Numbered from the stretch's first letter, positions 4,023-21,584 are shown. The stretch is 64,000 bases of DNA from an uncultured bacterium (GCA_963695095.1 CAVOFT010000001.1:2667849-2731848); one strand, 5' to 3'. Program-made: numbers and translations. The notes: a model not told the origin generated them from the letters alone.

Positions 4023-4767
4023 ATGAAGCCTGCGAATGCGCGGCCTGCGAAGCGCCTGCTGCCCTTGCTCCTGCTCGGCTTGCTGCCCGCCTGCGCCGAG
4101 AAGGAGACGGTGTTCCCGCGGGACACCAATCTGAACGTGCCCGAGGACTACGCCAGCCCCCAGCTGGCCGCGGCCGCGGCTCGCGCCGGCGACCAGATCA
4201 TCGTGAGCTATCGGGCGGCAGCCTACGTGGGCGATCTCGACTTGCCCACGGGCGTCTCGATGATCGGTCACGTGGAGAATCCCCTGCTGCCCCGGATCAC
4301 CGGCCAGGTCACGGTGAACGGCGGCGATGACCGGGTGAAGATCGCGCGCCTGGGCATCGACAATCCGGCCGGCAGCGGGCTGCACCTCGTCGGCAGCGCC
4401 TGCAAGATCGAGGAGCTCTGGATTCACGACTGCGATGGCCCCGGCATCGAGCTCATCGGCGATGCGCCTGCCTACATCCTCGCCTGCGACATCCAGCGCT
4501 GCGGGCCGGGCATCCTCATCCGCGACACCACCCAGGGCGGCAACTACGGCGATGTCGAGCACCCCGCCGCCCGCATCACCGACTGCAACTTCCTCGAGAA
4601 CGGTCCGGCGGGCGATCTCGACAACCTCGTCTTCGCGAACATCCCCGTGCTGTACACGGTCTACGTGGAGTCAGAATCACTGGGGAGAGGACGTCGATCG
4701 GCGTGCCGGCCATCGACGCCACGATCTACGACAACAAGGACGATGCCAGTCATCCGCGGGCTCGCTG
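4023..4767 (+). CDS. Lipoprotein with right-handed parallel beta-helix (PbH1-like) repeats; an apparent frameshift near 4690 is needed to reach the stop at about 4767.
   Basis: N-terminus MKPANARPAKRLLPLLLLGLLPAC carries a lipobox (LPAC). The body shows repeated beta-helix-like segments (VTVNGGDDRVKIARLGIDNPAGSGLHLVGSACKIEELWIHDCDGPGIELIGDA...). The track ORF 4023..5024 runs on in a wrong frame into apbE. Confidence 0.45.
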
Positions 4768-4816
4768 ACACCAGCGGCCAGGACTTCAGCTCCTGGCCCA
4801 GTCCGATCGACCACTG

Positions 4817-5869
4817 GTGGCGGACGAGAATCGAGGGCGACCGGCCCTCGCCTTGCTCGTCGCCCTCGCCGCCGGCTGCGCCCGCGAGGCGCCGCCGCGG
4901 CGCTTCGAGTTCCCCAGCATGGGCACGGCGGCTGCCCTGGAGCTGCGCGGTGCCGAGAGCGCTCGCGACAGCCTCGCGCTCGCCCGGGTGCAGGCGCGCT
5001 TCGCCGCCGTCGAGGCCGCCATGAGCACCTGGGACCGGGACTCCGAGCTCTCCCGGGCGAACCGCGCGCCCGTCGACTCCGCCTTCTCGCTGTCCCCGCT
5101 CGCCGGCGACTGCCTGGCCCTCGCCCTCGAGTTGCGCGCCGCCAGCGGCGGCGCCTTCGAGCCCGGCGCCGGGCCACTGATGCGGCTCTGGGGATTCACC
5201 CGCCGCGAGGGCCGCCTGCCCGATCCCGACAGCCTCGCTGCGCTGCTGCCCGCCCTCGGCGCCTACAGCTACGAGCCGCCCGCCCGGCGCCTGACGCGGC
5301 GCCACCCGGCCGTGGCCCTGGACCTGGGCGGCATCGCCAAGGGCTACGCCCTCGACCTGGCGGCGGCGGACCTGCGCGCCCTGGGCCTGCGCGCGGCCTT
5401 GATCGACCTGGGCGGCAACCTCTACTGCCTCGGCGAGGCCGCGCCGGGCGAGGCCTGGCAGGTGGGCATCCGCGATCCCCTGGATCGCGAGCGCATGTTC
5501 GCCGCCCTGGCCCTGCGCGATGAGGCCGTGGCCACCAGCGGCTCCTACGAGCGCTTCGTCGACGATCGCGGGCCGCCGCTACGGGCACATCATGAATCCC
5601 GCCACGGGCCGGCCCGCCGAGGGTCTGCTCAGCGCCACCGTGGTCTGCGCCGAAGCGGGGCTCGGCGACGGGCTCTCCACGGCGCTCTTCGTCCTCGGCC
5701 CCGGCGCGGCCGAGGCCCTGCTGCGCGGCCGCCTACCCCGAGGCGCTGGCGGTGCTGGTGTCGGCGGAGGACGGGGATCGCCTGCTGCGTGCGCGCGAGC
5801 GCCGGCCTCAGGGGCCGCCTGCGCATCCTGCCCGCGGACGCGGCGCGCTGCCGGATCGAGTTCTTCTAG
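4817..5869 (+). CDS. apbE: ApbE-family FAD:protein FMN transferase with lipoprotein signal; about three apparent frameshifts at roughly 5575, 5740 and 5805.
   Basis: Signal/lipobox [11 protein letters not shown], then ApbE motifs [35 protein letters not shown] and, in the second frame (ORF 5520..6017), [25 protein letters not shown]. The C-terminus (...[19 protein letters not shown]) returns to the first frame. The gene converges on the rnf operon, whose RnfG/RnfD are flavinylated. Confidence 0.75.
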
Positions 5870-6559
5870 GCCCGCTTGGCCGCCGGCTCCTCGTTCAGGT
5901 GGCAGAGCACGCAGTTGCCGCAGTCCATCTCCCGCGGCGGCTCGTAGGTCTCGCCGGCCCGCAGGGCGCGGCGCTCCTCGAGCCGGTTCATCCCGGCCAG
6001 CAGCAGGCCCAGGGTGAGGAAGGCGCCCGGCGGCAGGATCATCACCAGCACCGGCGGGAAGCTCGGCGCCGAAGAGCGAGAGGCCGAGCAGGCTGCCGTT
6101 GCCGAGCAGCTCCCGCAGGATCGCCCAGCGACATCAGGGCGAGGGTGAAGCCGAGGCCCATGCCCAGGCCGTCGGCCAGGGAGGCGCGAACGCCGTTGCG
6201 GCTGGCGAAGGCCTCGGCGCGGCCCAGGATGATGCAGTTGACCACGATCAGCGGGATGAAGAGGCCCAGGCTCCGGTGCAGCGCGAGGCAAGTAGGCGTG
6301 CATCACCAGGTCGACGATGGTCACGAAGCAGGCGATGACCACGATGTAGGCCGGGATGCGCACCTTGCGCGGGATGAAGCCGCGCAGCATGGCGATGATC
6401 AGATTGCTGCAGACGAGCACGAAGGTGGCCGCCAGGCCCATGCCGAGCGCCGTTCTCCACCGAGGTGGTGACGGCCAGCGTGGGACACAAGCCCAGCATG
6501 AGGCGGAAGATGGGATTCTCGTTCCAGAGCCCGCGCGTGAAGGTGCTGGTCAAGCTCAT
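5866..6559 (-). CDS. rnfE: Rnf electron-transport complex subunit E, pieced together from three ORF fragments (at least three apparent frameshifts).
   Basis: Fragments [37 protein letters not shown] (6248..6559), [50 protein letters not shown] (5866..6441 frame), [41 protein letters not shown] (6042..6245) and a C-terminus ...[29 protein letters not shown]. Together they make a canonical RnfE/RnfA-family 6-TM protein. Confidence 0.75.
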
Positions 6560-7177
6560 GGCGCGACCTCCGTCGTGCTGCTGTCGCAGCGGCCGCCCGG
6601 GGCGCGGCGTCCACCTGCGGGCGATCGGCGGCGTAGCGGGCGAGGGCCTCGCCGATGGCGCCGGCCAGGGCCCGCCCCGTCACCGTGGCGCCGGTGACCG
6701 CGTCGAGATCGCCGCCGTCGGCCTTCACCCGCCAGTCCGTGTCCGCCAGCGCATGGCCGGCGTAGAAGCGCGCGAGCAGTGCGGGATCGGCGTACTTGGC
6801 GCCCAGGCCCGGCGTCTCGGCGTGGCGCAGGATGCGCAGGCCACTGACACTGCCCTGGGCATCCACGCCGAGCATGACGCTCGATCTCGCCGGAGTAGCC
6901 CGTCTTGCTGAGGGCCTTGAAGGCCGCCCCGACGGGCGCCTCGCCCTGGTAGCCGCGCCAGTAGCTGCGCTCGCCGCCGCCGTCGGCCAGGTCCACGCGG
7001 TCGGCGTCGGGGGCGTTGTCGAAGGGCGGCATCACCGCGGCCACGGCCTCCATGCGCTCGCGCAGCATGGCCTGGCGGATGGGCTCGCGGGTCGTGGCGT
7101 CCACCTGGCTCAGCAGGAGGGCGGCGATGCCGCAGATCAGGGCCAGGCGCAGGCCACAGGTTCAGGGTCTCCTTCAT
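6556..7177 (-). CDS. rnfG: Rnf complex subunit G (FMN-binding), with apparent frameshifts.
   Basis: MKETLNLW start overlaps the rnfD stop (ATGA). Further fragments: [75 protein letters not shown], then [83 protein letters not shown] (FMN_bind with TGATxT). Confidence 0.7.
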
Positions 7178-8169
7178 GCCGCCTTCCTCTCCTCGAAGAG
7201 CTTGCGGCCGCTGCCGAAGACCCGCGGCCGCGTGGCGCGGTCGATCAGCGGCGTGGCCGCGTTCATGAGCAGGATGGCGAAGCTGACGCCCTCGGGATAG
7301 CCGCCCCAGAGGCGGATCAGCGCGGTGAGCAGGCCGCAGCCGAGCGCCGAAGATCAGCATGCCCCGGCGCGTGACGGGGCTGGTGACCATGTCGGTGGCC
7401 ATGAAGAAGGCGCCGAGCATGAGCCCGCCCGAGAGCAGGTGGAAGAGCGGCGAGGCGTAGCGCGCGCGGTCCACCAGCCAGGGGATGCCGCGTCACCAGG
7501 GCCAGCGCAGCCAGGAAGCCGACCGGGATCTGCCAGCGGATGTGTCCGCGCCAGAGCAGGTAGAGGCCGCCCAGCAGCAGCGCGAGCACGCTCACCTCGC
7601 CGAGGCTGCCGCCGCGCAGGCCGACGAGCAGCTTCCAGGCGGGAGCCAGGGCCAGCTCGTCGGCAGCGCCTTGCCCAGCGCCAGGCCCTCGCGCAGAACG
7701 CCCAGCGGCGTGGCGCCGGTGGCCGCGTCCAGGCGCAGGGGGCCGGCCGGCAGGGCCCAGGTGGTCATCTGCACCGGGAAGGAGATGAGCAGGCAGCACG
7801 CGGGCCACGAGGGCGGGATTGAAGGGATTGTAGCCGAGCCCGCCGTAGATCTGCTTGGCGATGACGATGGCGACGAAGGCGCCGATGAGCGACCATCCAC
7901 CAGGGACTCGTCGAGGGCAGGTTCATGGCGAGGAGCACGCCCGTGACCGCCGCGCTGAGGTCGTGCAGGCGACCGGGCCGGTGGAGGATGCGCAACATCG
8001 CCCACTCGAAGAGGAGGCAGCCCCGCACCGCGACCAGGAGCACGCGCAGGGCGGGCAGGCCGAAGAACCAGAGCCCCACGAGCAGGGCGGGAGTCAGCGC
8101 GATGAGCACGTCGCGCATGATGCGCGGAATCTCGCGATCGCCGTGCACGTGCGGCGAGCTGCTCATCAC
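7174..8169 (-). CDS. rnfD: Rnf complex subunit D, with apparent frameshifts.
   Basis: N-terminus [37 protein letters not shown]; middle [39 protein letters not shown]; C-terminus [22 protein letters not shown]...[48 protein letters not shown]. These lie in three different track ORFs: 7765..8169, 7317..7808 and 6725..7474. Confidence 0.7.
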
Positions 8170-8272
8170 GAGCAGGGCGGCGGCGGCGCGGCCTTGCTCG
8201 GCGTCGCCGGGTCCGCGCCCCGGCCGCTGTCGATCTGCTCGTCGCTCATCGCTCTTCGCCCCTCCCCGCGGC

Positions 8273-9595
8273 CTAGGCCGCGCCCCGTTTGCTCTGCTCG
8301 GCCTTGAGTTCCGCCTTGCCCCGCCGGAACAGCTGCACCAGCGGTCGGAAGGACGGACAGACGTAGGCGCAGCTGCCGCACTCGATGCAATCGCCCACCC
8401 GGTAGTCGGCGAGGTCCGCGAAGCGGTTCCGCTCGGCGAGCACGCCCATCGCGCTGGGCACCAGGCCCATCGGGCAGGCGTCGACGCAGGCGCCGCAGCG
8501 GATGCAGGGATCGGCCAGGAACTGGCTCAGGCGCTCGGCGGGCAGGCAGAGGATGCCGCTGGTGCCCTTGATCACCGGCACCTCGAGGTTGAACTGGCCC
8601 ATGCCCATCATCGGCCCGCCGAAGATGACCTTGCGCGATCTGTCGGCTTCAGGCCGCCGCAGTGGTCGATGACGTCGGCGAGCAGGCGTGCCCACGCGCA
8701 GGCGCAGATTCGCCGGGCGGGCGATGCCCTCGCCGGTGACCGTCGTCACCCGCTCGATGAGCGGCAGACCCGCTTGCACGGCCGCCCAGGCCGCCACCGC
8801 CGTGCCGACGTTCTGGACCAGGCAGCCCACGTCCATGGGCAGGCCGCCGGCCGGCACGCTGCGCCCGGTGAGCGCATAGATGAGGTGCTTCTCCGAGCCC
8901 TGCGGATACTTCGCCTCCAGCAGCACGAACTCGGCCGCCACATCCGCCGGACAGGCGCCGCGCAGGGCGGCCAGGGCGTCGGGCTTGTTGGCCTCGACGC
9001 CGACGACGACGCGCTTCACGCCGAGCACGCGCGCCATCAGGCCGACACCCTCCATCACGGCCGCGGCCTGCTCGAGCATGACCCGGTGGTCGCTGGTGAG
9101 GTAGGGCTCGCACTCGGCGCCGTTGAGGATGAAGGTGTCGATGGGCTTGTCCGCCGGCGGGCTCAGCTTGACGTGCGTGGGGAAGGTGGCCCCCCCCATG
9201 CCGACCAGGCCGCCGTTCTTCAGCGCCTCGCGCAGCGCCGCCGCTTCGAGCCGGCGCCAGTCGCCCAGGGGCGCGAGGCCTTCCCAGAGGCGATCCTCGC
9301 CGTCGGCCTCGATCTCGACGGCGGGCAGGTTGCGCCCCAGAGGATGCGGCCAGTCCTTCACTGCCTTCACGGTGCCGCTGGTGGGCGCGTGCACGGGCAC
9401 GGAGACGAATCCCTGCGGCGTCGAGAGCGGCTCGCCCTTGGCGACTTTCTGCCCCTTGGCCACGATCGGCGTGCCGGGCGCTCCCAGGTGCTGGGCGAGG
9501 GGGACGGCATAGCGCACCGCCAGCGGCAGCGTCTCCACGGCCAGGGTGGCCGTTTCCTTGTGGTAGTCGGGGTGGACCCCGCCCTTGAAGCGCAT
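8273..9595 (-). CDS. rnfC: Rnf complex subunit C (NuoF-like NADH/FMN-binding, 2x[4Fe-4S]); a double frameshift around 8650-8700.
   Basis: MRFKGGVHPDYHKETATLAVETLPLA..., SGTVKAVKD, GGLVGMGGATFPTHVKL, ILNGAECEPYLTSDHRVM, VTGEGIARPANLRLRVGTP, KVIFGGPMMG, and the ferredoxin motifs CIRCGACVDACP and CIECGSCAYVCP. The track ORF 8273..9988 over-extends upstream; the true start MRFKGG is about 9595. Confidence 0.8.
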   Translation of the reverse strand: MRFKGGVHPDYHKETATLAVETLPLAVRYAVPLAQHLGAPGTPIVAKGQKVAKGEPLSTPQGFVSVPVHAPTSGTVKAVKDWPHPLGRNLPAVEIEADGEDRLWEGLAPLGDWRRLEAAALREALKNGGLVGMGGATFPTHVKLSPPADKPIDTFILNGAECEPYLTSDHRVMLEQAAAVMEGVGLMARVLGVKRVVVGVEANKPDALAALRGACPADVAAEFVLLEAKYPQGSEKHLIYALTGRSVPAGGLPMDVGCLVQNVGTAVAAWAAVQAGLPLIERVTTVTGEGIARPANLRLRVGTPARRRHRPLRRPEADRSRKVIFGGPMMGMGQFNLEVPVIKGTSGILCLPAERLSQFLADPCIRCGACVDACPMGLVPSAMGVLAERNRFADLADYRVGDCIECGSCAYVCPSFRPLVQLFRRGKAELKAEQSKRGAA

Positions 9596-9615
9596 GCCGC
9601 CTTCGCTTTCCGGCC

Positions 9616-10416
9616 CTAGTGGCGCGCCGCGCCCAGCTCGATGACACGGATCGAGCCGTTGGGGCACAGGTCGATGAGGGTTTCGTCCGCGGGAGCCTGC
9701 GCGTAGTCGACGCGGGCCAGCCAGTCCGTGACGAGGATGCCGCCGGCGGCCGCCTTCTCGCACTTCTTGCAGCCGATGCAGGCCACCTGGCAGGCCTTGC
9801 GCGCCAAGGGCCCCTTGTCGGTGTTGCTGCAGAGCACGTGGATGCGCGCGCTCTCGGGCACGAGCTCGATGATGCCCTTCGGGCAGGCCGCCACGCAATG
9901 CCCGCAGGCCGTGCAGCGCTCGGGGATGATGCGGGCGATCCCGCTCTCGAGGATCTCGATGGCGCCGAAGGAGCAGGCCTCCTGGCAATCGCCGAGGCCG
10001 AGGCAGCCCTGCAGGCAGAGCTTGTCGCCGCCGCCGAGCTGGGCGGCGCTGGCGCAGCTGGCCATGCCGTTGTAGAGAAAGCGCCGCGGCGCGAGGTCGC
10101 TGCCGCCCTGGCAGTGCACCAGGGCCACCCGCCGCTCCTTGAGCTCGACGCTGAGCCCCATCAGGGCGGCCACGGCCTGCGCCGTGGCGGCACCCCCCAC
10201 CGGACAGCCATCCGGAGGCGCCTTGCCGCCCACCACGGCGCCGGCGAAGTCATTGCATCCGGCAAAGCCGCAGCCGCCGCAGTTGGCGCCGGGCAGCAGA
10301 TCCAGGAGCGCTTCCTGTCGGGGATCGATCTCCACGGCGAAGAAGCGCGCGGCCCAGCCGAGCCCCAGACCGGAGATGAGCCCGAGGCCGGCGAGCACTG
10401 TGGTGGCGATGAGCAT
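9616..10416 (-). CDS. rnfB: Rnf complex subunit B (N-terminal TM helix plus a Cys-rich cluster region and 4Fe-4S dicluster ferredoxin domain).
   Basis: MLIATTVLAGLGLISGLGLGWAARFFAVE..., CGGCGFAGCNDFAGAVV..., CTACGHCVAACPKGIIE, CIGCKKCEKA. The ORF is intact. Confidence 0.85.
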   Translation of the reverse strand: MLIATTVLAGLGLISGLGLGWAARFFAVEIDPRQEALLDLLPGANCGGCGFAGCNDFAGAVVGGKAPPDGCPVGGAATAQAVAALMGLSVELKERRVALVHCQGGSDLAPRRFLYNGMASCASAAQLGGGDKLCLQGCLGLGDCQEACSFGAIEILESGIARIIPERCTACGHCVAACPKGIIELVPESARIHVLCSNTDKGPLARKACQVACIGCKKCEKAAAGGILVTDWLARVDYAQAPADETLIDLCPNGSIRVIELGAARH

Positions 10417-10436
10417 CGATGCCCTCCTGCGTCGGC

Positions 10437-11027
10437 TCAGACGAGCCCGGCAAAGCCCATGAATGCCAGCGAGAGGATGCCGGCCGTGATGAGCGCGATG
10501 GCGGTGCCCTTGAAGGCCCGCGGGGTGTCGGCCAGATCCAGCACCTCGCGGATCCCCGAAAAGAGAAGAATGGCCAGGCCGAAGCCGACGGCGCCGGCGA
10601 AGCCGAAGAGGGCGGTCTGGAGCAGGTTGTGCTCGTTCTGGATGTTCAGCACCGCGACGCCCAGCACCGCGCAGTTGGTGGTGATCAGCGGCAGGAAGAT
10701 GCCCAGGGACCGGTAGAGCGGCGGGCTCAGCTTCTGCAGCGCGAGCTCCACCAGCTGGACCATGGCGGCGATGATGAGGATGAAGGCGAGGATCTGCAGG
10801 AAGCGCAGGTCCTGCGGCACCAGGGTGGCGCCCGGCTTCAGCACGCCGTGATAGACGAGCCAGCTCACCACGCTGGCCAGGGTCATCACGAAGATGACGG
10901 CGCCGGTCATGCCCAGCGCCGTGCCGAGCTTCTTGGAGACGCCCAGGAACGGGCAGATGCCGAGGAAGCGGCTGAGGACGAAGTTGTTGACCAAGACGGC
11001 GCTGATCGCCAGGAGCAGCAGGTCCAC
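10437..11027 (-). CDS. rnfA: Rnf complex subunit A (6-TM).
   Basis: [54 protein letters not shown]...[17 protein letters not shown]... is a classic RnfA/NqrE-family sequence. The ORF is intact. Confidence 0.9.
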
Positions 11028-11029
11028 GG

Positions 11030-11155
11030 CAGCCTCCTCGGGGCCTAACCCCGCTGATGCGGCATAATTAAGACCAGCGACCCGCCTCGCTCAAGGGACT
11101 TGTGAAAAATGGTACATGTCGCAAGCTATCGTCGATGGCGGCGGCCGGGGCGCCT
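11030..11155 (-). promoter_or_regulatory. AT-rich 125-bp spacer between nuoI and rnfA in an otherwise 70% GC region. Candidate internal sigma70-like promoter for rnfABCDGE, e.g. CTTGAG-N18-TTAATT(A), or TTCACA as an alternative -35.
   Basis: Minus-strand sequence ...ttgcgacatgtaccatttttcacaagtcccttgagcgaggcgggtcgctggtcttaattatgccgcatcagcgggg...ATG(rnfA). It is the only notable GC dip inside the nuo-rnf gene string. No specific motif is convincingly assigned. Confidence 0.25.
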
Positions 11156-11677
11156 TCAGGCCCGGCCGCGGACGCCATCGCCCAGCTCCTGCTCGCGCTC
11201 CAGGGCCGGCCGCTTGTACTGCTCGTAGTCGCTGAGCAGCTTGGCCTTGTCGAAAACCAGCTCCTCGCGGCTGTGGCTGGCCACCTCGTAGAGGTCGCTC
11301 ATCACGATGGCCTCCTTGGGGCAGGCCTCCTCGCAGTAGCCGCAGTTGATGCAGCGGCCCATGTCGATGTCGAACTCCTCGGGCACCCGCTCGCGCATCT
11401 CCTGATCGCGAAATTCGCCGATCTTGATGGTGATCGCCCGCGGTGGGCAGACGACTTCGCAGAGCTTGCAGGCCACGCACTTCTCGATGCCGTCGGCGCC
11501 CATCACGAGGCGCGGCATGCCGCGGAAGCCCGGCGGCGTCGGCCAGCGCTGCTCGGGGTAGGCCTGCACCACCGAGCGGTGGAACATGTTGCGGAAGGTG
11601 ATGCCCAGCCCCCCCACGATCGCAGGCAGGTAGAGCCGCTCGAACCAGCCTTGCTTGATCTGGCGCTTAACCTTCAT
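11156..11677 (-). CDS. nuoI: NADH-quinone oxidoreductase subunit I-like protein (2x[4Fe-4S] ferredoxin, NuoI/TYKY family).
   Basis: MKVKRQIKQGWFERLYLPAIVGGLGITFRNMFHRSVVQAYPEQRWPTPPGFRGMPRLVMGADGIEKCVACKLCEVVCPPRAITIKIGEF...FDIDMGRCINCGYCEEACPKEAIVMSDLYEVASHSREELVFDKAKLL aligns along its length with NuoI (YPEE..P..FRG...G.E.CVAC.LC...CP..AI...RCI.CG.CEEACP). The start lies inside track ORF 11156..11983 and overlaps the nuoG 3' end by about 10 nt. Confidence 0.85.
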   Translation of the reverse strand: MKVKRQIKQGWFERLYLPAIVGGLGITFRNMFHRSVVQAYPEQRWPTPPGFRGMPRLVMGADGIEKCVACKLCEVVCPPRAITIKIGEFRDQEMRERVPEEFDIDMGRCINCGYCEEACPKEAIVMSDLYEVASHSREELVFDKAKLLSDYEQYKRPALEREQELGDGVRGRA

Positions 11678-13511
11678 GCCGACCTGCGACCTCCAGGCTG
11701 CTCGCCGCGGCCGCGGCGAGCAGGGGCGCGAACCAATCCGTGTCCAGCGGCCGGCGCCCGGCCACCGGGGTCCAGCTCTGCAGCCGTCGCGCGAGACCCC
11801 AGCTGTTCGTGAGCGTGCCGACCAGGTCGATGGGCGCCCGCCGGGCGAGCACCACCGCTGCCGTGGCGCGCGCCGCGGCCAGGCCGCCGCTCTGCACGAT
11901 GAGGGCGCCGCCGGCCAGGTCCAGGGCTTGCTCCCAGCGGGCGGGATCCGCGAAATCCGCAGCCGGATCGAGGCCGAAGGCATAGACGAGGTCCGCTTCG
12001 CCGCCCTCGAGTAGCCCGAGCGGATCCGGCCCCGGAGCCGTGGCCGCGGCCGCCAGCAGGCCGCGGCGATTCATCCCCTCGAGCAGCCAGAGCAGGCGGG
12101 TTTCGCCCCCGCGCGCCGCCAGCGTCGCCAGGAAGCGTGCGTCGATGGCCCCGCTGGTCACCAGCCGATTGCTGAGGGCCACCAGCAGTCCGCCGGGCTC
12201 GGCGAGGAACTGCGCGCCTTCGCCGGCCAGCCAGGTGGCCGGCGACGCGCTGATGCGCTGCCACCGGTGATTGCCTTCGCCGAGCGGAGCCCAGGCGCCT
12301 TCCTGGACGAGGGTGACCGCGCCGGCCGTCTCGCCGGCCGCCCCGCCGAGCAGGCGCAAGGCCAGCAGCGGATGGGCCAGCTCCGGATCCTCCCCCAGCA
12401 CGAGCACGCGCTGGAAGCGGCCGAGGCCGGCGAGCGTGTCGAGTTCCAGGCCCGAGCGCGTCAGGGCGGCGAGAAAATCCAGCTCGGCGGCGAGGGCCGG
12501 ATAGGGGCGGGCCGCGGTGCCCAGGGCCAGCGCGAGGGCGCCCAGGGCCGCCAGTTCCTCATCGGTGGCGCGACTGCCGACGACCAGCAGCGGCTGCTTC
12601 GCGGCGGCAAGCAGCTCCCGCGCCCGCGCGGCGGCCTCCTCGGTATCGACGGGCACCTGCACGCCCTGCCGGCGCACGAGGCTCTCGGCCAGGCCGGCCT
12701 CCAGGGGATAGTCGAAGCGGCCGCGATCGCAGAGCCACCAGGCGTTGACCTCGTGGTCGACATCCGCCGTCACCCGCTGCAGCGCGGGGCCTTTCCACCA
12801 GCTCGTGAGCGAGCAGCCGAGCGAGCAGCCGCCGCAGCTGCTGGCCACGGCGCGCATTTCCCAGGGTCGCGCCTGGAAGCGGAATTCCCGCGTCGTCAGG
12901 GCGCCGACCGGGCAGATGTCGGCGAGGTTGCCGGTGAAGCCGCTGGTCAGCGGCTGGCCCTCGAAGATGTCCACGCTGACGTGGTCGCCGCGCAGGCGCA
13001 GGAAGAGCTCCTCGCGGCCCACGATGTCGCGCTGGTAGCGCACGCAGCGGCTGCAGAGGATGCAGCGCTCGGCGTCGAAGATGATGTGCTCGCCGATCAC
13101 GCGGTGCTTGACAGCGGTGTTCTTGGCGTCCGCCATGCGACTGTGGCCGGGTCCGTGCCGGCGCGTGGTCTCCTGCAGGGGGCACTCGCCGCCCTTGTCG
13201 CAGATCGGGCAGTCCAGGGGATGGTTGATGAGGATGAACTCGAGCACGCCCTGCCGAGCCTTGTGCACCTTCTCCGAGTTCGTCGTGATCTCCATCCCGG
13301 CGGCGGCGCTCAGCGTGCAGCCGGGCACGAGCTTGGGCGCGCCTTTCATTTCCACCAGGCACATGCGGCAATTGCCGTCCACGCCGATGCCGGGGTGATA
13401 GCAGAAGTGCGGGATCTCGTCGCCCAGCTCGGTGGAGAGCTCGATGAGCGGCTTGCCGGCCTCGGTCTCGATCTCGCGGCCGTTGTAGATCATCGTCACC
13501 TTGTCGGGCAT
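11667..13511 (-). CDS. nuoG: NADH-quinone oxidoreductase subunit G-like protein (75-kDa Fe-S subunit, 614 aa), with an Ala-rich, apparently degenerate C-terminal molybdopterin-like half.
   Basis: N-terminal 2Fe-2S ferredoxin fold (CYHPGIGVDGNCRMCLVE), HPLDCPICDKGGECPLQ, CILCSRCVRYQRDIVG, ICPVGALT, CGGCSLGCSL. The ORF is intact and its ATG shares one base with the nuoBD stop (TGATG). Confidence 0.85.
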   Translation of the reverse strand: MPDKVTMIYNGREIETEAGKPLIELSTELGDEIPHFCYHPGIGVDGNCRMCLVEMKGAPKLVPGCTLSAAAGMEITTNSEKVHKARQGVLEFILINHPLDCPICDKGGECPLQETTRRHGPGHSRMADAKNTAVKHRVIGEHIIFDAERCILCSRCVRYQRDIVGREELFLRLRGDHVSVDIFEGQPLTSGFTGNLADICPVGALTTREFRFQARPWEMRAVASSCGGCSLGCSLTSWWKGPALQRVTADVDHEVNAWWLCDRGRFDYPLEAGLAESLVRRQGVQVPVDTEEAAARARELLAAAKQPLLVVGSRATDEELAALGALALALGTAARPYPALAAELDFLAALTRSGLELDTLAGLGRFQRVLVLGEDPELAHPLLALRLLGGAAGETAGAVTLVQEGAWAPLGEGNHRWQRISASPATWLAGEGAQFLAEPGGLLVALSNRLVTSGAIDARFLATLAARGGETRLLWLLEGMNRRGLLAAAATAPGPDPLGLLEGGEADLVYAFGLDPAADFADPARWEQALDLAGGALIVQSGGLAAARATAAVVLARRAPIDLVGTLTNSWGLARRLQSWTPVAGRRPLDTDWFAPLLAAAAASSLEVAGRHEG

Positions 13512-15232
13512 CAGCGGTCACACTCCCCCATGACGGGATCCAGACTGGCGATGATGGCCACGGCATCGGCGATCATCGCCCCCTCGAGCATCGTGCGCAG
13601 GATCTGCAGGTTGTTGAAGGACGGACTGCGAATCTTGCAGCGATAGGGGTGGGCACTGCCGTCGCTGACGAGGTAGAAGCCCAGCTCGCCCTTGGGCGCT
13701 TCGATCGCCGTGTAGACCTGGCCCAGCGGCGGCCGGATGCCCTCGGAGATGAGCTTGAAGTGGTGGATCAACTCCTCCATCGAGTCCAGAACCCGCTCCC
13801 GGGCGGGCAGCACGTAGTCGCGGTTGTCCGAACTCACCGGGCCGTCCGGCAGCTCGGCGATGGCCTGGCGCACGATCTTGGCGCTCTGGCGCATCTCCTC
13901 GATGCGGACGAGGTAGCGGTCCATGCAGTCGCCGCGCTCGCCGGTCACCGACTCGAAGTCGAACAGCTCGTAGTCGAGATAGGGCGCCGCCTTGCGGATG
14001 TCGAAATCGACGCCCGCGGCGCGCAGGATGGGACCCGTGAGCCCGTAGCCGATCGCCTGCTCGGCGCTGATGATGCCCACGTCCACGTTGCGGTCCAGCC
14101 AGATGCGGTTCTTGTTGAGCAGGCCCTCCACCTCGCCGAGGGTCTTCTCGCACTCGTCGAGGAAGGCGAGCACCTTGTCCGTCCAGCCGGCGGGCAGGTC
14201 GCGGGCCACGCCGCCGATGCGCGTGTAGCTGGTGGTCAGGCGCGTGCCCGTGAGCTCCTCGAACAGGTTGTAGAGCAGTTCGCGCATCTGGAAGGTGTAG
14301 AAGAAGACCGTCCCCGCGCCGAGATCGAGGGCGTAGGTGCCCACCGAGAGCAGATGGGCGCTGATGCGCGCCAGCTCGGCGGCGATCACCCGGATGCGCT
14401 TGGCGCGCACGGGAATGTCCAGGCCGATCAGGTTCTCGACGGCGAGCGCGTAGGCCACGTTGTTGGACAGCGGGCTCATGTAGTCGAGGCGGTCCGTGTA
14501 GGGCAGGTAGTTGTGGTAGGTCTTCTCCTCGGCGATCTTCTCGTAGCCCCGGTGCAGGTAGCCCACGTGCGGCTGGCAGCGGACGATGATCTCGCCGTCC
14601 AGCTCCAGCACCAGGCGCAGGACCCCGTGCGTCGCCGGATGCTGGGGTCCCATGTTGAGGATCATCGTGCCGTCGCGGCTGGGCTCCAGGCGGGTCTCGA
14701 TGCCGGGCATGGGAATCTTGGGCGCATAGTGCTCGCGCGGCGCGTCCTTGAAGCTCTCGCGATCGACCACCCCACGCTGCATCTTGAGCAGGGCATCGAG
14801 CAGGGCATCCGGGCGCGGCGGGCAGCCGGGCAGGTAGACGTCCACCGGGATCACCCGGTCCAGCCCCTGCACCACCGAGTAGCTGTCGAACATGCCGCCC
14901 GTGCACAGGCAGGTGCCCATGGCGATCACGTACTTGGGCTCGAGCATCTGGTCGTAGATGCGCCGCACCACGGGGGCCATCTTGTTGGTGAGCGTGCCGG
15001 CGACGATCATCAGGTCGCTCTGGCGGGGCGAGAAGCGCATCGCCTCGGCGCCGAAGCGGGCCATGTCGTAGCGGCTGGCCACGGTGGCCATCATCTCGAT
15101 CGCGCAGCAGGAGATGCCCATCGGCATCGGCCAGAGCGAGTTCTTGCGCGCCCAGTTGCTCGCCTTGTCGACCGTCGTCGTGAGGACGTCGACGCCGAAA
15201 CCCTGGGACTGCGGATCGGGCTTGCTGCTCAT
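13511..15232 (-). CDS. Fused NuoB-NuoD protein (complex-I 20-kDa and 49-kDa subunit homologues in one polypeptide, about 45-aa linker, no NuoC module).
   Basis: N-terminal NuoB: [13 protein letters not shown]...[15 protein letters not shown]...[65 protein letters not shown], with the N2-cluster cysteines. C-terminal NuoD: [50 protein letters not shown]...[13 protein letters not shown]...[45 protein letters not shown]. There are no NiFe-hydrogenase Cys motifs. It is a single intact ORF (track 13511..15295; the first ATG giving MSSKPD is about 15232). Confidence 0.85.
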
Positions 15233-15326
15233 CCTGCCTCCGCGCGTGGGAAACCGTGGGTCTCCAAGATACTCAGCCCGGCAGCATAATTCCACGCGGG
15301 ACTAGCGTCAATCAGACAGGCCGGTC

Positions 15327-16682
15327 TCAATCGGCCTCGGCGTCCGTGGACGCGCGCGGCAGCGGCCAGGTCAGGGCCAGCAGCGAATCGGGCAGGCTGT
15401 AAAGCGTGGGATAGTCCAGGCGGCGCAGGGCCCGGCGACCCTGGCGACCGGGGCCGATCTCGAAGCCCAGTTCGCTGCCGTCTCTGAAGTGCAGCGTGAA
15501 GCGCTGGGCCTCGCTCGCCAGCCCCCAGTCGGCGAGCTGATCGTCGCGCGGCAGCAAGGCCTCCACGCGTTCGGTGGACAGCCGCAAGAGGCTGCCCAGG
15601 AAGGCGGCGACGGCCGGTCCGTCGAGCGCGCCGCCCGCGTCGCTCTTCCAGCGCCAGTCGTCGCCGGGCTCGCGCAGGGCCCGCTGGCCCGCGGGGCCAG
15701 CGATCGTCTCCACCTGGCCGGGCATGAAAACGAGCAGCACCGGCGAGAGGAAAGCGCTGAAGGACTCGAGCAGAGGAGCGCAGGTCACCGAGTCGAGCAG
15801 GAAGGCGTGCTGGCGATCGCGATTGCGGGCGTAGCTGAGCTCGAAATGCGGCCGGCCCAGCTCGAGCAGTCCGCCCTGTTTGCCGCCCCGCAGCAGGACC
15901 GTGAGCCGGGATCTCGGCGCAGCGAAGCCGAGCCCGGTGTCGGCGTCCTCCTCGACGCCGGCGAAGCCGATGATGCTCTCGCCCCAGAGCCGCTCGATCA
16001 ACCGGCCCACGGCGAGGTAGTCGGCCGGATAGGCCTCGGGTCGCTGGATCTCCCAGCCTCGCTCCCCTCGCGCCAGCACGAAGCGCCCGCGCGCGTTTTC
16101 GAATTCGAGTCGCTCCACCTCGTCCAGCGGGATGCCGCCCAGCGGCCGCTTGTCGGCCAGCTCGTAGCGGCCCTTGAGCGCATGCGTGCGCAGCAGGCTG
16201 GAGACGAGGGCCAGCGAGTCGCGCCAGCTCACCGCCACCCAGAGCCGTTTCTCGACAGGATTGAGATCGCCGAAGCGCAGCGTGTCGACGGTGCCGCCCC
16301 GCCCCAGGCGCAGGGTCAGGCGCGGGGAGACGAGGCCGAAGGCCGCCAGCTCCGCCGGCGTCGCCGGCGGCAACCAGCGCTCCACCTTCTGGCCGGCGAG
16401 CGTGGCCAGCAGGCGCTCGATCACCACGCTGTCGCCGGCATCCGTCACGGGTGCCGTGAGCCGCCAGGGCGCCGCCGCGTCCGCGCGCTCCACGCGCAGC
16501 GTCTTCTCGGGATAGGCCAGCTCGAACCAGCGCAACTCGTCGACGGCGCGCGGGTAGAGGTAGCCCGCGGCGAGACGCTGGGCGACGAGGGCCTCGTCGC
16601 CGCGATCGCGAAGCAGGACGAGCAGGGCAGCCAGCAGCACGAGGGCCAGCGCGGCCAGGGTGAGTCGCCACCTGAGGATCAC
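15327..16682 (-). CDS. DUF4340-family protein with an N-terminal TM anchor, the usual partner of GldG-type ABC accessory proteins.
   Basis: After a GC-driven over-extension, the plausible start is VILRWRLTLAALALVLLAALLVLL..., followed by soluble repeats. Gene order ATPase-permease-GldG-DUF4340 is a conserved arrangement. Confidence 0.5.
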   Translation of the reverse strand: MILRWRLTLAALALVLLAALLVLLRDRGDEALVAQRLAAGYLYPRAVDELRWFELAYPEKTLRVERADAAAPWRLTAPVTDAGDSVVIERLLATLAGQKVERWLPPATPAELAAFGLVSPRLTLRLGRGGTVDTLRFGDLNPVEKRLWVAVSWRDSLALVSSLLRTHALKGRYELADKRPLGGIPLDEVERLEFENARGRFVLARGERGWEIQRPEAYPADYLAVGRLIERLWGESIIGFAGVEEDADTGLGFAAPRSRLTVLLRGGKQGGLLELGRPHFELSYARNRDRQHAFLLDSVTCAPLLESFSAFLSPVLLVFMPGQVETIAGPAGQRALREPGDDWRWKSDAGGALDGPAVAAFLGSLLRLSTERVEALLPRDDQLADWGLASEAQRFTLHFRDGSELGFEIGPGRQGRRALRRLDYPTLYSLPDSLLALTWPLPRASTDAEAD

Positions 16683-18103
16683 GGCTGTCCTCCTTCGCCG
16701 AGGCCGCGACGGCGGGACCACCAGAGCCGCAGCGGCCAGGCCGAGAGCACGATCAAGGGCAGGGCGACCAGGGACAGCAGCAGGTAAAGCCGCCGCCCCG
16801 ACGGCGTGATCGGCAGCAAGCGCGCCGGCGGCAGCGCGGCACCGGGGGCCACGCGCTCCTGCGCCAGCCAGCCCAATCCCCCCAGCAGCAGGCGGCCGTT
16901 GCCATACCAATCCAGGTGCGCGGCGCTGATGAAGTGGCTGTCGCCCACCACGAGCAGCGGCCCGCCGCCCTGGGCGCTGCTGTCCGAGGCGGCCGCCAGC
17001 ACGAAGGGCCCGCGGCGATCGGTCGCCTCGTCGAGGTGGGCGCTGCCGTCGAAGGGCCCGCGCTCCTCGAAGCTGCGCTCGCCGCTGATGAGCAGGGGGC
17101 CGGGCGCGCCGGGCCCCTCACCGCTGAGGTCGAGGGCTCGAGCGAGAGGAAAGCAGGACGGCTCGGGCCGGGTGAGGAAGCCGCGCGTGGCGGGGTGCGC
17201 GGCATAGCGCGTGGCCACCGGAATCTCGAAGCCGCGATCCAGGGCGATGTTCTCCTCGCTGAAGTCGACGATGAAGCCCTCGCCCAGCGCGATGCCGCGC
17301 GTGGCGAGCAGCGGACCCAGGCCCGCGTCGCGCGAGGAGTCGGCCATCTCGGCCGCGGGATCGATGAGCAGGCAGAGCGCGCCGCCCGCGGCGAGGTAGC
17401 GCTCGAGGGCGGCGAGCACGCTGGCCGGCAGGCGCTGGTGCGGACCGGGAACAAGCAGCACCCCGGCGCCGGGTGCGGGCGCGGGCTCGCTGAGCGCCCA
17501 CCAGGGAAGCACCTGCCAGCCCTCGGCGCCGAGCAGGGTCGCCAGGGCGCTCAGGCTCTCGGGCCCGGCATCCTGGCCGGCCAGGCCCAGAGGCCGCAGC
17601 CCCGGCGCCTGGGCGACGGCAAGGCGCCGTCCCCCCTCCTCGCCGCGGCCCAGGGCGATGAAGGCGCGCGCCAGAGCGCGCTCGTCGAGGGAGTAGTCGC
17701 CGGTCGCGCTGCGCTCGGCCAGCAGGCGCTCGCTGGCGCCATCCAGCTCGATGAGCAGTTCGCCGGGCTCCTGGACGCCGGCCGCCATGGCGCGCGCCGG
17801 CTCGCGCCCGGGGTCGATGAAGCGCCAGCTCAGATCCGGCCGCAGCGCCTGGCAGGCCCCCAGCAGCGCGGCGGCGCGGCTGCGCTCCGGCTCCCGGTCG
17901 GGGAGAAAGAGCGTGATGCGCGGCGCGCCCGGGAGCGCCGCCAGGCTCTCGGCCGTGCGCGCCTCGAGGCTGTGGCGCGAGCCCGCGCTCAGATCCAGCC
18001 GCCAGCGCTGCCGGCCGCCGAGAGTGAGCAGCAGCGCGGCGGCCAGCAGCAGGGTCAAGCTGCGCACCCAGATCTGGGCGCGCGCGCTCGCGGCGGTGCT
18101 CAT
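16679..18103 (-). CDS. GldG-like ABC-type transport auxiliary protein (about 475 aa).
   Basis: Start MSTAASARAQIWVRSLTLLLAAALLL (TM), a large periplasmic body, and a C-terminal TM (LYLLLSLVALPLIVLSAWPLRLWW). The track ORF 16679..18856 is over-extended upstream by about 250 codons of Arg/Pro/Ala-rich GC artefact. Confidence 0.55.
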   Translation of the reverse strand: MSTAASARAQIWVRSLTLLLAAALLLTLGGRQRWRLDLSAGSRHSLEARTAESLAALPGAPRITLFLPDREPERSRAAALLGACQALRPDLSWRFIDPGREPARAMAAGVQEPGELLIELDGASERLLAERSATGDYSLDERALARAFIALGRGEEGGRRLAVAQAPGLRPLGLAGQDAGPESLSALATLLGAEGWQVLPWWALSEPAPAPGAGVLLVPGPHQRLPASVLAALERYLAAGGALCLLIDPAAEMADSSRDAGLGPLLATRGIALGEGFIVDFSEENIALDRGFEIPVATRYAAHPATRGFLTRPEPSCFPLARALDLSGEGPGAPGPLLISGERSFEERGPFDGSAHLDEATDRRGPFVLAAASDSSAQGGGPLLVVGDSHFISAAHLDWYGNGRLLLGGLGWLAQERVAPGAALPPARLLPITPSGRRLYLLLSLVALPLIVLSAWPLRLWWSRRRGLGEGGQP

Positions 18104-18884
18104 CGGCCGCCTCCCCGCAGGGCCTGCAGACGGCGGCGCGCGAGCTCCAGCCCCAGCGCCGTGAGGACGAGGAAGTAGAGCAGGTCCGCCGTGTCGAGCA
18201 GCCCCGCGAGCAGGGGTGCCAGATGGCCGAGCGCGGACAGGCTGACCAGCGCGCCGCCTGGAAAGCCCGTCGCGCCGGGACGCGCGAAGCCGCCCAGGAT
18301 CCACAGCAGGATCAGCAGCGCAAAGCCGCCGATCGCAGCCAGCAGCGGACTGCGCGTCAGACTGCTCACGAAGAGCGACAGGGCGAGGAAGGCCGCCGCG
18401 AGCAGCCCGATGCCGGCCAGCCCCAGCAGGAAACTCGGCCAGTGCAGGCTGCCGTAGCCGGTCAGGACGAGCTTGGGCAGGCAGGCCAAGACGAGCAGGG
18501 CCAGGAAGTAGAGCCAGGCGGCCAGCCACTTGCCCAGGACGAGCCGGCCCTCGCCCACGGGACTCGTCATCAAGAGCTCGAGGGTGCCGCTCTTGCGCTC
18601 CTCGGCGATGAGGTTCATCGCGAGCAGGGGCAGGAGCAGCAGGCTGAGCAGGGCGAGGGCGCCGAGATCCTGGCGCAGCAGGCTCTCGTTGAAGTCGAGG
18701 AAGGCGGGCGCCAGTCCCTGGCTGCGCATGCGCAGGCCGATCTCGGCGTTCGCCCGCAGGTAGCCCTGGAGATTGAGGATGCTGAGCGCGCCCGCGAGCA
18801 GCAGGAAGACCCCGCCCAGGAGCCCGGCCAAGGGCGAGTTGAACAGGGCGCGCCACTCCCGGCGCAAGATTGCCGCCAGCACTC

Positions 18885-18888
<4 letters not shown>
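18100..18888 (-). CDS. ABC-2 family transporter permease (GldF-like).
   Basis: MRVLAAILRREWRALFNSPLAGLLGGVFLLLAGALSIL... has 6 predicted TM segments. The start overlaps the upstream ATPase gene's stop. Confidence 0.65.
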
Positions 18889-19814
<926 letters not shown>

Positions 19815-19845
19815 CCCTGCGAGTTAGTCCTTCGCGGCCGGCCTG

Positions 19846-21264
19846 TCAACCGCGATCGCCGGCCGGCTCCCCGGCGCCGGCCAGCCCCGCCGCCGCGAGC
19901 AGAGCGGCCAGGCCCGCCGGGCTGCTCTCGGCAGTGGCCAGCCGGCGGGCGAAGGGCAGGGTCCAGCCCCAGACGCCGTTGCACAGCAGGGCCGGGGCCG
20001 CGCCGCGGGCGGCGCGCTGGGCCAGCTCGGCCTGCCGCGCGGGCGCGGGCGGCGTCCGCCCGAGATAGAGGTAGACCGGCGCGGTCGACGCCTCGTCCGC
20101 GCCCAGCCGCCGCGGAGCCGTGCCCATCGCGCGAGCATGGGCTCCCAGGTAGGCTTCCGCGGGCCAGGAGCCCAGGGGACCGAGCTCGAGATCGACGGGC
20201 GTGCCCGCCGCAAGCGGCCGCCAGTCGCCGCCGCCGGGCACGAAGACCGCCGCGCCGGCGATGTCCTCGAGATCCGGCGCCGGCCGCGGCGGCGTGCCGG
20301 CGCTCGGCAGCGCGGCGCGGAAGGCGAGCCAGCGCTCGCCGGCCTCGTCCAGCCAGGCCTGCCGCAACTCGCCGCGCTCCAGCGCGGCCGCCATGGCGTC
20401 CAGCAGGAACTCGGCGCCCGGCTCCCAGCGCGCCAGCGTGAGCAGGTGACAGCCCGCGGCGAGGGCGGCGGCGCCGCGATCCGCGGCCGGGATCACGGCG
20501 GCCCCGGCCATCTCGAGGGCGTCGGTGATGACGAGCCCGGCAAAGCCCAGCTCCCCGCGCAGACGATCGCGCATGAGATCGGGGCGGAAGGTGGCCGGCC
20601 GGGCGTCCGCATCCCCGGCGAGCTGCAGGTGCGCGCTCATGAGGGCGGGCGCCGCGGCCCCGGCGCGGAAGGGAATCAGGGCCTGCCCGCGGTCCGCCGG
20701 CACGGCAGGCAGGCTGAGGTGGCTATCCTCCAGGCTGTCGCCGTGGCCGGGGTAGTGCTTGATGACGGCCAGCACGCCGCCCGCCGCCAGGCCGGCGAGG
20801 GCGGCGGCCACCGCTGCAGCGGCCGCCGCGGAATCGCCGCCGAAGCTGCGCGTGCCGATCACGGGATTGCGGGCGCCGTCGTCGAGGTCGGCCAGGGGAG
20901 TGATCAGGACCTCGATGCCCTGCGCGCGGGCGGCCGCCGCCATCGCCTGGTGGCAACCCTGCAGAGCGGGCAGACCGGCCATCGCCTGGGCGCGGGGCGC
21001 CGGCCAGGGCAGGGCATGCAGCTGCTGGATCCAGCCGCCTTCTTCATCGAGAAAGACCAGCAGCTCGCGTCCGGCCGCCTCCTCGAGGCGACGGCGCAGC
21101 GGAGTCAGCGAGGCGGCGCCTGCGGGCAGGTTGTCGCGGAACAGGATGACGGCCGGCGGCGCGTGGCGCTCGAGCAGGCGGAGGAAGTCCGCAGGCAGTT
21201 CGGGGCCGCGCCAGCCGAGCAGCCAGTGGGCCCCGATCCGGCGGTGCGCGGCCGGCGCGATCAC
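19846..21264 (-). CDS. nagZ: Beta-N-acetylhexosaminidase (glycoside hydrolase family 3, NagZ-like).
   Basis: GH3 signatures IKHYPGHGDSLEDSHLSLP and GFAGLVITDALEMAGA. The track ORF 19846..21417 is slightly over-extended at the N-terminus. Confidence 0.75.
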   Translation of the reverse strand: MIAPAAHRRIGAHWLLGWRGPELPADFLRLLERHAPPAVILFRDNLPAGAASLTPLRRRLEEAAGRELLVFLDEEGGWIQQLHALPWPAPRAQAMAGLPALQGCHQAMAAAARAQGIEVLITPLADLDDGARNPVIGTRSFGGDSAAAAAAVAAALAGLAAGGVLAVIKHYPGHGDSLEDSHLSLPAVPADRGQALIPFRAGAAAPALMSAHLQLAGDADARPATFRPDLMRDRLRGELGFAGLVITDALEMAGAAVIPAADRGAAALAAGCHLLTLARWEPGAEFLLDAMAAALERGELRQAWLDEAGERWLAFRAALPSAGTPPRPAPDLEDIAGAAVFVPGGGDWRPLAAGTPVDLELGPLGSWPAEAYLGAHARAMGTAPRRLGADEASTAPVYLYLGRTPPAPARQAELAQRAARGAAPALLCNGVWGWTLPFARRLATAESSPAGLAALLAAAGLAGAGEPAGDRG

Positions 21265-21584
21265 GCCAGCGGCTCCACGCGCACGGCCGTGCCGTAGGCG
21301 AGCAGCTCGGAGGCGCCGGGCATGATCTCCGCAGTGACGAAGCGCAGGCCGAGGACGGCGTTGGCGCCCAGTTCCTCCGCCTCGCCGCTCAAGCGATCCA
21401 GGGCCTGCTCCCGGCATTCGGCCATCATCTTCGTGTACTCGAAGACCTCGCCGCCCACCAGGTTCTTCAACTGGGCCATGACGTCGTGGCCGAGGTGGCG
21501 CGTGCGCACGGTGTTGCCGCGCACGAGGCCCAGCACCTCGACGATGCGCTGTCCGGCCAGCGCTTCCGTTGTGGCCAGAATCAT
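21261..21584 (-). CDS. YbjQ/UPF0145-family protein (107 aa).
   Basis: MILATTEALAGQRIVEVLGLVRGNTVRTRHLGHDVMAQLKNLVGGEVFEYTKMMAECREQALDRLSGEAEELGANAVLGLRFVTAEIMPGASELLAYGTAV matches the YbjQ fold along its length. Confidence 0.7.
   Translation of the reverse strand: MILATTEALAGQRIVEVLGLVRGNTVRTRHLGHDVMAQLKNLVGGEVFEYTKMMAECREQALDRLSGEAEELGANAVLGLRFVTAEIMPGASELLAYGTAVRVEPLA

Follow-up and report, generated by a model that had tools for sequence, protein, structure and literature searches.

Gene Content and Organisation of the Locus

We analysed a 64,000-nucleotide stretch of DNA from an uncultured bacterium (GCA_963695095.1, CAVOFT010000001.1:2667849-2731848), hereafter the window, in which three genes for complex I-type subunits adjoin an rnf cluster. 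On the minus strand of this sequence (G+C content of approximately 72%), a nuoB-nuoD fusion is followed by nuoG, nuoI, a spacer, and rnfABCDGE, and apbE, which encodes a flavin transferase, converges on the far end of the cluster. Gene identities assigned with Pfam and NCBIfam confirmed this order, which had been proposed in an earlier prediction made from the sequence alone (the original prediction), and apbE was found on the plus strand at 4817–5869, in the convergent position described there.

The fusion gene (nuoBD, 13511–15232, minus strand) encodes a protein of 573 aa with the Pfam domains Oxidored_q6 and Complex1_49kDa, in which NuoB occupies approximately residues 1–165 and is joined by a linker of about 45 residues to a full NuoD. 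Its start was placed at the ATG at 15232, which is used in all relatives; the listed open reading frame (ORF) extends to a GTG at 15295. The protein scored 567 bits against the NuoD family TIGR01962 (cutoff 459) and 237 bits against the NuoB family NF005012 (cutoff 116), and no Complex1_30kDa (NuoC) domain was found in it by the Pfam and NCBIfam scan. The nuoG gene (11667–13511, minus strand) encodes 614 aa with the domains Fer2_4, NADH-G_4Fe-4S_3, Fer4_Nqo3, and Molybdop_Fe4S4. Residues 5–498 of this protein aligned with Mycobacterium smegmatis NuoG; the motifs of the 2Fe-2S, His-ligated 4Fe-4S, and 4Fe-4S clusters and an N7-like motif were all present. Its score against TIGR01973 (385 bits) fell under the cutoff of 470. 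The product of nuoI (11156–11677, minus strand; 173 aa) contains the Fer4 domain twice, with two 4Fe-4S motifs (CxxCxxCxxxCP), scored 138.7 bits against NF004538 (cutoff 135), and has, in our own reading of the sequence, a canonical amphipathic N-terminus.

The nuoBD and nuoG genes have one base in common, the A of TGATG, and nuoG overlaps nuoI by 11 nt, where the original prediction had about 10; the trio is thus expected to be a translationally coupled operon. The spacer between nuoI and rnfA was also present as predicted, with a length of 128 bp (11028–11155) instead of 125 bp. Profile hidden Markov models (HMMs) for NuoA to NuoL were built from 80 canonical nuo loci with Pfam-checked reference subunits. 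Only NuoB, NuoD, NuoG, and NuoI were matched in the window, and NuoA, C, E, F, H, J, K, and L/M/N were not found anywhere in its 64 kb, in agreement with the local absence of these subunits noted earlier. The region at 40.8–50.8 kb, with a membrane-like ORF composition, was considered as a candidate membrane arm and rejected, as its ORFs encode transporters, NfnAB-like proteins, and others.

A Family of NuoB-NuoD Fusions without NuoC

Fifty-four loci bearing the fusion were collected. Of these, 14 were obtained through exact protein look-ups and 40 through a scan of metagenomes with a DNA pattern requiring NuoB and NuoD to be spaced as in the fusion; when applied to known loci, this pattern recovered 12 of the 14 with the fusion and left all 80 canonical ones unmatched. 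All loci were annotated with the same nuo HMMs and ranked by the identity of their NuoBD to the window protein. According to their sources, the relatives belong to Krumholzibacteria or Bdellovibrionota or are unclassified, and the full-length proteins (n > 116) measured 568–604 aa. As a rule, nuoG accompanied the fusion gene, and the pair was joined by nuoI in Krumholzibacteria and in one group of Bdellovibrionota type, so that the whole trio is a conserved unit in these lineages; elsewhere, the fusion was found with nuoG only, or alone. Beyond these NuoG and NuoI partners, it always lay away from other nuo genes at the sampled loci.

In a rough neighbour-joining tree of NuoD, drawn without support values, 40 sampled fusions and the NuoD of locus L022 formed one clade, and this clade was sister to the NuoD of Verrucomicrobiota. 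The family of fusions appears, from this comparison of sequences, to be a single clade. Locus L022 (7–4711) carries an unfused nuoB-nuoD-nuoG-nuoI cluster without nuoC, and its NuoB is extended at the C-terminus by about 90 residues; the cluster may represent an intermediate, or else a fusion gene that a frameshift has broken in two. The NuoB motif of the fusions, WPMPMG(I/L)(S/A)CC, is common to canonical NuoB of Bacteroidota, Ignavibacteria, and Balneolales and was found at L022, L026, L048, L049, L053, L057, L063, and L072. The NuoB motif and the grouping of NuoD with Verrucomicrobiota may thus give a mixed signal.

We also searched a protein library in which clustering at 50% identity had left 1.84 billion representatives. 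Among the best 150 matches considered, there was one representative of a B-D fusion of this kind, so that the family appears to collapse into one 50%-identity cluster. The next-best multi-domain relatives were NuoBCD fusions (P0392 and P0393), approximately 50% identical. Two other proteins without NuoC were noted, namely P0437 (668 aa), with a ferredoxin dicluster, NuoB, and NuoD, and P0454 (553 aa), a distant NuoB-NuoD protein with 37% identity. A search of genome contigs with the fusion gave, among the matches listed, only canonical nuoB/C/D or nuoD loci, at no more than 61% identity.

The NuoBCD fusion of the 'NUO12' operons of some deltaproteobacteria (NF009808, PRK13292) has the same layout as the protein studied here, with the quinone-reducing module (Q-module) in one chain, NuoB at the N-terminus, and NuoD at the C-terminus, but in NuoBD the NuoC domain of approximately 200 residues is gone. 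In line with this difference, NuoBD scored 692 bits against NF009808 (cutoff 1156), and the match was confined to the B and D stretches. An origin from the known BCD fusions was considered and found to be unsupported, as NuoBD has no C domain and the fusions group beside the unfused B-D-G-I cluster, in a tree that did not include BCD fusions. No description of a NuoB-D fusion was found in literature searches on NuoBD fusions, missing NuoC, and Krumholzibacteria respiration. What stands as new is therefore a widespread family of complex I Q-modules, apparently a single clade, that have lost NuoC and join NuoB directly to NuoD. Should the genomes truly be without NuoC, one of the subunits counted as core would prove dispensable for building complex I, and should they also be without a membrane arm, the peripheral arm would have been put to a new use.

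Conservation of the Quinone Site and Fe-S Ligands

The N2 cysteines of NuoB (C42, C43, C108, and C137) and the quinone-site residues of NuoD (H202, Y245, and D303) were invariant in 118 fusion proteins. By motif, we take the three NuoD residues to correspond to His38, Tyr87, and Asp139 of Thermus thermophilus Nqo4, the quinone-headgroup ligands. In solved complex I structures, the quinone site is completed by NuoH, and its strict conservation here speaks for a canonical type of membrane partner. The NuoD part is 55–60% identical to canonical and mitochondrial NuoD, and the top PDB matches of NuoBD were mitochondrial 49-kDa subunits (444 bits), with those of T. thermophilus and Escherichia coli behind.

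The residue-level description of the three proteins in the original prediction holds, with regard to the N2 cysteines of NuoB, the PQHP and LHRGxEK regions of NuoD and its lack of NiFe-hydrogenase motifs, the cluster motifs of NuoG, and the two 4Fe-4S motifs of NuoI. An identity as a group 4 [NiFe] hydrogenase or Ehr-type protein was rejected: the fusion has no NiFe-binding CxxC pairs, reads GPQHPATHG at the N-terminal and RSPSF at the C-terminal position of these pairs, and has complex I NuoD proteins, not hydrogenases, as its best matches. From these sequence features, the trio appears to be a functional portion of a complex I that reduces quinone. It would encode both the Q-module of a complex I-type enzyme and its connecting Fe-S part: NuoB would carry cluster N2, NuoD the quinone site, NuoI clusters N6a and N6b, and NuoG clusters N1b, N4, and N5 together with an N7-like site; in this enzyme, NuoB would be fused directly to NuoD and NuoC would be absent.

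The rnf Cluster Adjoins the Trio in One Narrow Lineage

The headline of the original prediction was that the trio and Rnf could be combined in a hybrid assembly or make up a dedicated branch for electrons, in which the Fe-S wire formed by NuoG, NuoI, and NuoBD would feed or drain the Rnf core. Such a hybrid, if true, would be a respiratory machine of a new kind; the comparison of relatives speaks against it. Two features of the locus speak for such an assembly, as the clusters are co-directional and separated by only 128 bp, and the arrangement was kept in every sampled locus with at least 90% NuoBD identity and enough downstream sequence (L093, L122, L094, and L081–L083). Since these are independent assemblies, the adjacency is not peculiar to one contig, and an assembly chimera, named in the original prediction as a possible source of it, does not account for it.

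Below 90% identity, however, rnf never adjoined the trio, whether in the next relatives at 77% (L123, L089, and L090) and 74% (L084), or in any of the loci at 57–64%. The two independent assemblies L089 and L090 carry a DUF4340 gene, nuoBD, nuoG, and nuoI, followed directly by a Beta-helix gene and a TPR/sigma-54 activator gene, which in L081 and in the window sit beyond apbE. The flanks are thus the same, and a block of approximately 6.6 kb comprising a SnoaL-like gene, rnfABCDGE, and apbE is present or absent between them; in the window, the far edge of this block is marked by the Beta-helix gene (4023–4826, plus strand). Where rnf was absent, so was apbE, in L089 and L090 as well as within 10 kb of the L084 trio.

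No rnf gene was found within 10 kb of the L084 trio either. The contig of this trio has a length of 585,457 bp, and a homologue of RnfC (P0176) lies on a contig of 585,457 bp, so that the 74% relative probably holds the trio and rnf apart on the same contig. The trio, or its BD-G core, was also found without rnf in unrelated contexts, in L084, in the Bdellovibrionota-type loci L085, L088, and L091, in L086 and L092 (BD-G only), and among the 40 metagenome loci of the pattern scan, and none of the Bdellovibrionota-type loci had rnf beside the trio. The hybrid therefore fails the comparison of synteny across relatives that the original prediction itself had proposed, its adjacency being limited to loci with at least 90% NuoBD identity.

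The Region between nuoI and rnfA

In relatives with 90–92% identity, the two clusters are separated by a gene for a SnoaL-like (NTF2-fold) protein (L081, 14063–14425; L115, 105–443), which overlaps the nuoI stop by 4 nt and is translationally coupled to nuoI. In the lineage of the window, this gene was deleted, with a 3' remnant left in L093 (14078–14125). None of it is left in the window itself, where the 128-bp spacer (minus strand) marks the place at which it was lost.

In an alignment of four orthologous upstream regions, a block of approximately 35 nt (11090–11124) was invariant across spacers that have otherwise diverged, and in L081 this rnfA-upstream block sits after the SnoaL-like gene. 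Inside the block, 74 nt upstream of the rnfA start, lies an imperfect palindrome, TGTACCATTTTTCACA (11101–11116), of the CRP/FNR-like, likewise imperfect form TGT(A/G)CCATTTTTCACA. A scan with a CRP-type consensus was not significant in itself (3 matches, 7.8 expected), and the support for the palindrome is its conservation across species. No Rfam family matched the spacer. The conservation of the block argues for rnf having its own control region, and the trio and the rnf cluster would then be transcribed separately. The spacer contains a weak terminator-like hairpin (11076–11091) and no strong terminator, which speaks against this separation and for a hybrid assembly, since transcription could run across the spacer from nuoI into rnfA.

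A gene for a Crp/Fnr-family regulator was noted beside a Fic gene at 26160–26828 of the window (minus strand), approximately 15 kb from the palindrome, and the same Crp-Fic pair is present in L089.

The presence of a SnoaL-like gene between the clusters in close relatives, the conserved element of rnfA, the absence of the adjacency between the same flanks in the next relatives and in all other phyla, the apparent location of rnf elsewhere on the contig in the 74% relative, and the features of the trio, which are those of a quinone reductase and not of a ferredoxin-type wire, make it highly improbable that the trio and Rnf form a hybrid or a dedicated branch for electrons. We consider it very probable that there is no dedicated coupling of Rnf and complex I in this lineage. 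As the adjacency occurs in one narrow lineage only, the trio and Rnf are most likely separate enzymes that came to adjoin. The rnfABCDGE genes and the convergent apbE would form an ordinary ferredoxin:NAD+ oxidoreductase cluster under a conserved upstream control region of its own. Because the SnoaL-rnf-apbE block is present here and absent in sister lineages, its place downstream of the trio would result from an insertion or deletion event, not from functional coupling.

Complex I Genes Are Dispersed in Related Lineages

The genes of the trio were themselves found apart in several lineages. In L086 and L092, nuoI was not found within 10 kb of the BD-G pair, and in L099, nuoBD stands by itself, with nuoI 9 kb away behind unrelated genes. 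The Verrucomicrobiota loci (L001–L013, L003, and others), whose NuoD is closest to that of the fusions in our tree, start at nuoD (D-E-F-G-H-I-J-K-L...), and no nuoA, nuoB, or nuoC was found within 10 kb upstream of them. The cyanobacterial ndh clusters are another dispersed nuo/ndh set. In Bdellovibrio, the nuo genes have been described as split into sub-clusters (PMC4758237).

Compared with such a split set of complex I (NDH-1) genes, the trio is alike in that NuoB, NuoD, NuoG, and NuoI are canonical in sequence, with all Fe-S ligands and quinone-site residues, in that its genes lie away from those of the other subunits, and in that NuoD and NuoI pass NCBIfam equivalog cutoffs. It differs in that NuoB is fused to NuoD with a NuoC domain neither between them nor nearby, in that partner genes were not seen at the fusion loci, and in the score of NuoG, which is under the TIGR01973 cutoff. 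Complex I of the Campylobacter/Helicobacter type keeps NuoG and replaces NuoE/F, with its nuo genes in one operon together with NuoC and the membrane arm. The trio shares with it a NuoG without adjacent NuoE/F, so that another electron-input module is conceivable, but in those organisms the nuo genes have stayed in one operon.

Two observations were made at individual loci. An orphan gene for a complete, canonical-type NuoB (166 aa) lies in L088 (16745–17245), 2.5 kb downstream of the trio and between unrelated genes, on a Bdellovibrionota-type contig of 2.9 Mb; it was absent at the same place in L085. In L099, a gene for an Mrp/NUBPL-type Fe-S cluster carrier ATPase (7506–8597) lies near nuoBD; in eukaryotes, the homologue of this ATPase acts as an assembly factor for complex I. 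In Bdellovibrionota-type loci, the small ORFs that precede the fusion were considered as candidates for NuoA or NuoC and proved to be unrelated.

Because nuo genes are dispersed, the quinone site is strictly selected, and sister clusters are split, the most economical reading is that the trio is a conserved piece of a complex I gene set whose members lie scattered. This corresponds to the second explanation offered in the original prediction, that of a split nuo locus, which fits the evidence better than the hybrid and is favoured here, but unproven. The remaining subunits (NuoA, NuoH, and NuoJ–N, NuoE/F or a substitute, and possibly NuoC) would be dispersed elsewhere in the genome. Three points weigh against this reading. 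Neither NuoC, NuoE/F, nor membrane-arm genes were found by the HMMs within approximately 10 kb in the 54 fusion loci; a NuoG without nearby NuoE/F and a Q-module without NuoC do not match the needs of a textbook complex I; and the type genome of the Krumholzibacteria, a draft metagenome-assembled genome of Ca. K. zodletonense, was annotated with only 'a few subunits' of NADH:quinone oxidoreductase (PMC7914226).

The same points would be explained if the trio were instead a self-contained redox module that lacks NuoC and a canonical membrane arm, that is, a soluble or peripherally attached set of Fe-S clusters and a quinone site, which attaches to a different membrane partner or works with a different donor/acceptor pair. 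The genomes would then not need to encode the other complex I subunits, in keeping with the missing neighbours in the 54 loci and in the 64-kb window and with the few subunits of the type genome. The grouping of 40 fusions and the NuoC-less L022 in one clade, and the existence of other fusions without NuoC (P0454, B-D; P0437, Fer4-B-D), also point in this direction. However, the NuoD part is as similar to canonical and mitochondrial NuoD as stated above, the quinone-headgroup residues are invariant in a site that, in established structures, only NuoH completes, and the N-terminus of NuoI is of the canonical amphipathic kind. Moreover, nuoI or nuoG is not adjacent to the fusion in several lineages, so that the cluster is not a closed functional unit and the absence of neighbours says little. 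We thus regard a self-contained module as rather unlikely, and it is more doubtful still that a NuoC-less redox module without a canonical membrane arm is docked on another membrane partner, conceivably Rnf in this lineage. The account that we prefer, and hold to be moderately likely in full, is that of two separate respiratory clusters lying side by side, with the complex I membrane arm encoded elsewhere.

Frameshifts in the rnf Cluster and apbE

The six rnf genes were recognisable in their usual A-B-C-D-G-E order, with apbE alongside, as in other clusters for the Rnf complex (ferredoxin:NAD+ oxidoreductase) and ApbE. The operon was not complete in the sense of the original prediction, as rnfD, rnfG, and rnfE are interrupted and rnfC is garbled in part. 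The rnfA gene (10437–11027, minus strand; 196 aa) is intact; its product scored 268 bits against TIGR01943 (cutoff 229) and matched L081 RnfA in a single frame with 88% identity. Likewise intact is rnfB (9616–10416, minus strand; 266 aa), with Pfam FeS and Fer4 domains and a single-frame match at 68% identity. The frame of rnfC (8273–9595, minus strand; 440 aa) is open, and the protein passed the cutoff of TIGR01945 with 521 bits. Three genes are broken: rnfD (7174–8169, ends approximate), traced across three frames with multi-frame tblastn; rnfG (6559–7179, approximate); and rnfE (5866–6559), the last two located by frame tracing, multi-frame tblastn, and comparison of insertions and deletions (indels) with the intact 95% relative L122 (all on the minus strand). 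The apbE gene, identified by its match to L081 ApbE, in which the Pfam ApbE domain was detected, overlaps the end of rnfE and is frameshifted as well. Apart from these frameshifts in rnfD, rnfG, rnfE, and apbE, the cluster is ordinary.

When the window was compared with L122, approximately 18 frame-disrupting indels were found at 5563–8686, nearly all of them insertions of 1–2 bases. Three single-base insertions in rnfC (8686, 8643, and 8633; net +3) garble about 17 residues, which explains why the SLBB domain (PF10531) was not detected by Pfam in the window RnfC. Twelve others fall in rnfD (insertions at 7890, 7794, 7672, 7492, and 7345), rnfG (7156, 6878, and 6586), and rnfE (6448, 6286, ~6120, and 6061), which can be read only by frame jumping, and three single-base insertions in apbE (5563, 5723, and 5788). 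No such indel was found in nuoBD, nuoG, rnfA, or rnfB, and nuoI had one 1-nt gap, at the edge of the stop codon; all five of these genes matched in a single frame. In L081 (90%) and L122 (95%), rnfD, rnfG, and rnfE are intact. After correction of the indels, rnfC, rnfD, rnfG, rnfE, and apbE were 85–93% identical to L122 (rnfD, 89% over its stop-to-stop frame), compared with 90% for the intact RnfA and 86% for RnfB. Only one stop codon was left after correction, in the stop-to-stop frame of rnfD, and it was attributed, unchecked, to a heavily gapped stretch upstream of the rnfD start.

A second frameshift patch was observed at 50900–53700 (plus strand), where two or more frames are needed to read a radical-SAM (Radical_SAM_N2)/DUF2344 gene; a frame-switch scan gave 50–52 kb as the second-highest density in the window. 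In L094, a 94% relative from another assembly, approximately 140 extra single bases relative to the window were found at 14800–21400, a stretch that begins at the end of rnfA and takes in the Beta-helix gene, and its nuoBD, nuoG, and nuoI were clean. The two assemblies are thus noisy over the same island, with the disruptions of L094 at different positions.

We consider it likely that the frameshifts in rnfC to rnfE and apbE are local patches of assembly consensus error, since the corrected proteins match L122 as well as the intact RnfA and RnfB do, and since the second patch hits an unrelated gene and L094 is noisy over the island where L081 and L122 are clean. Two observations weigh against an artefact and leave room for recent decay: the insertions lie outside homopolymers, and the public record has the same rnfC lesion (P0164, without the SLBB domain). 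The trio would in that case stand beside a dead Rnf cluster of decaying pseudogenes, in accord also with the concentration of the indels in one interval next to clean genes and with the disruption of the same genes, at different positions, in L094. Decay by almost only insertions is, however, unusual in bacterial genes; the corrected genes show no excess of amino-acid divergence over their intact neighbours, if the single stop in the rnfD frame is set aside as above; an unrelated gene at 51–53.7 kb is similarly affected; and the relatives at 95% and 90% identity are intact. These considerations render decay unlikely, if far from negligible, and consensus error the better explanation. In either case, the window has patches dense in single-base insertions, and gene calls within them are not to be trusted.

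A further gene of the window may be affected. The gene for the 2-oxoglutarate dehydrogenase E1 component (53806–56615, plus strand) was called with 779 aa, and a piece with a high G+C content at third codon positions (56034–56615) lies in another frame, possibly reflecting another frameshift. An E2-like gene follows at 56652.

Neighbouring Genes

Upstream of the trio, the window carries genes for an ABC ATPase, an ABC-2 permease, a GldG-like auxiliary protein, and a DUF4340 protein (15327–19814, minus strand), unrelated to the trio, which confirms the upstream boundary drawn in the original prediction. These genes are syntenic in the Krumholzibacteria relatives with or without rnf. Finally, a pair of genes resembling NfnAB or sulfide dehydrogenase was found at 42537–44856 (plus strand), the first with DHODB_Fe-S_bind and FAD_binding_6 domains and the second with Fer4_20 and Pyr_redox_2 domains; it represents another ferredoxin/NAD(P)H-linked enzyme in the neighbourhood of the trio.

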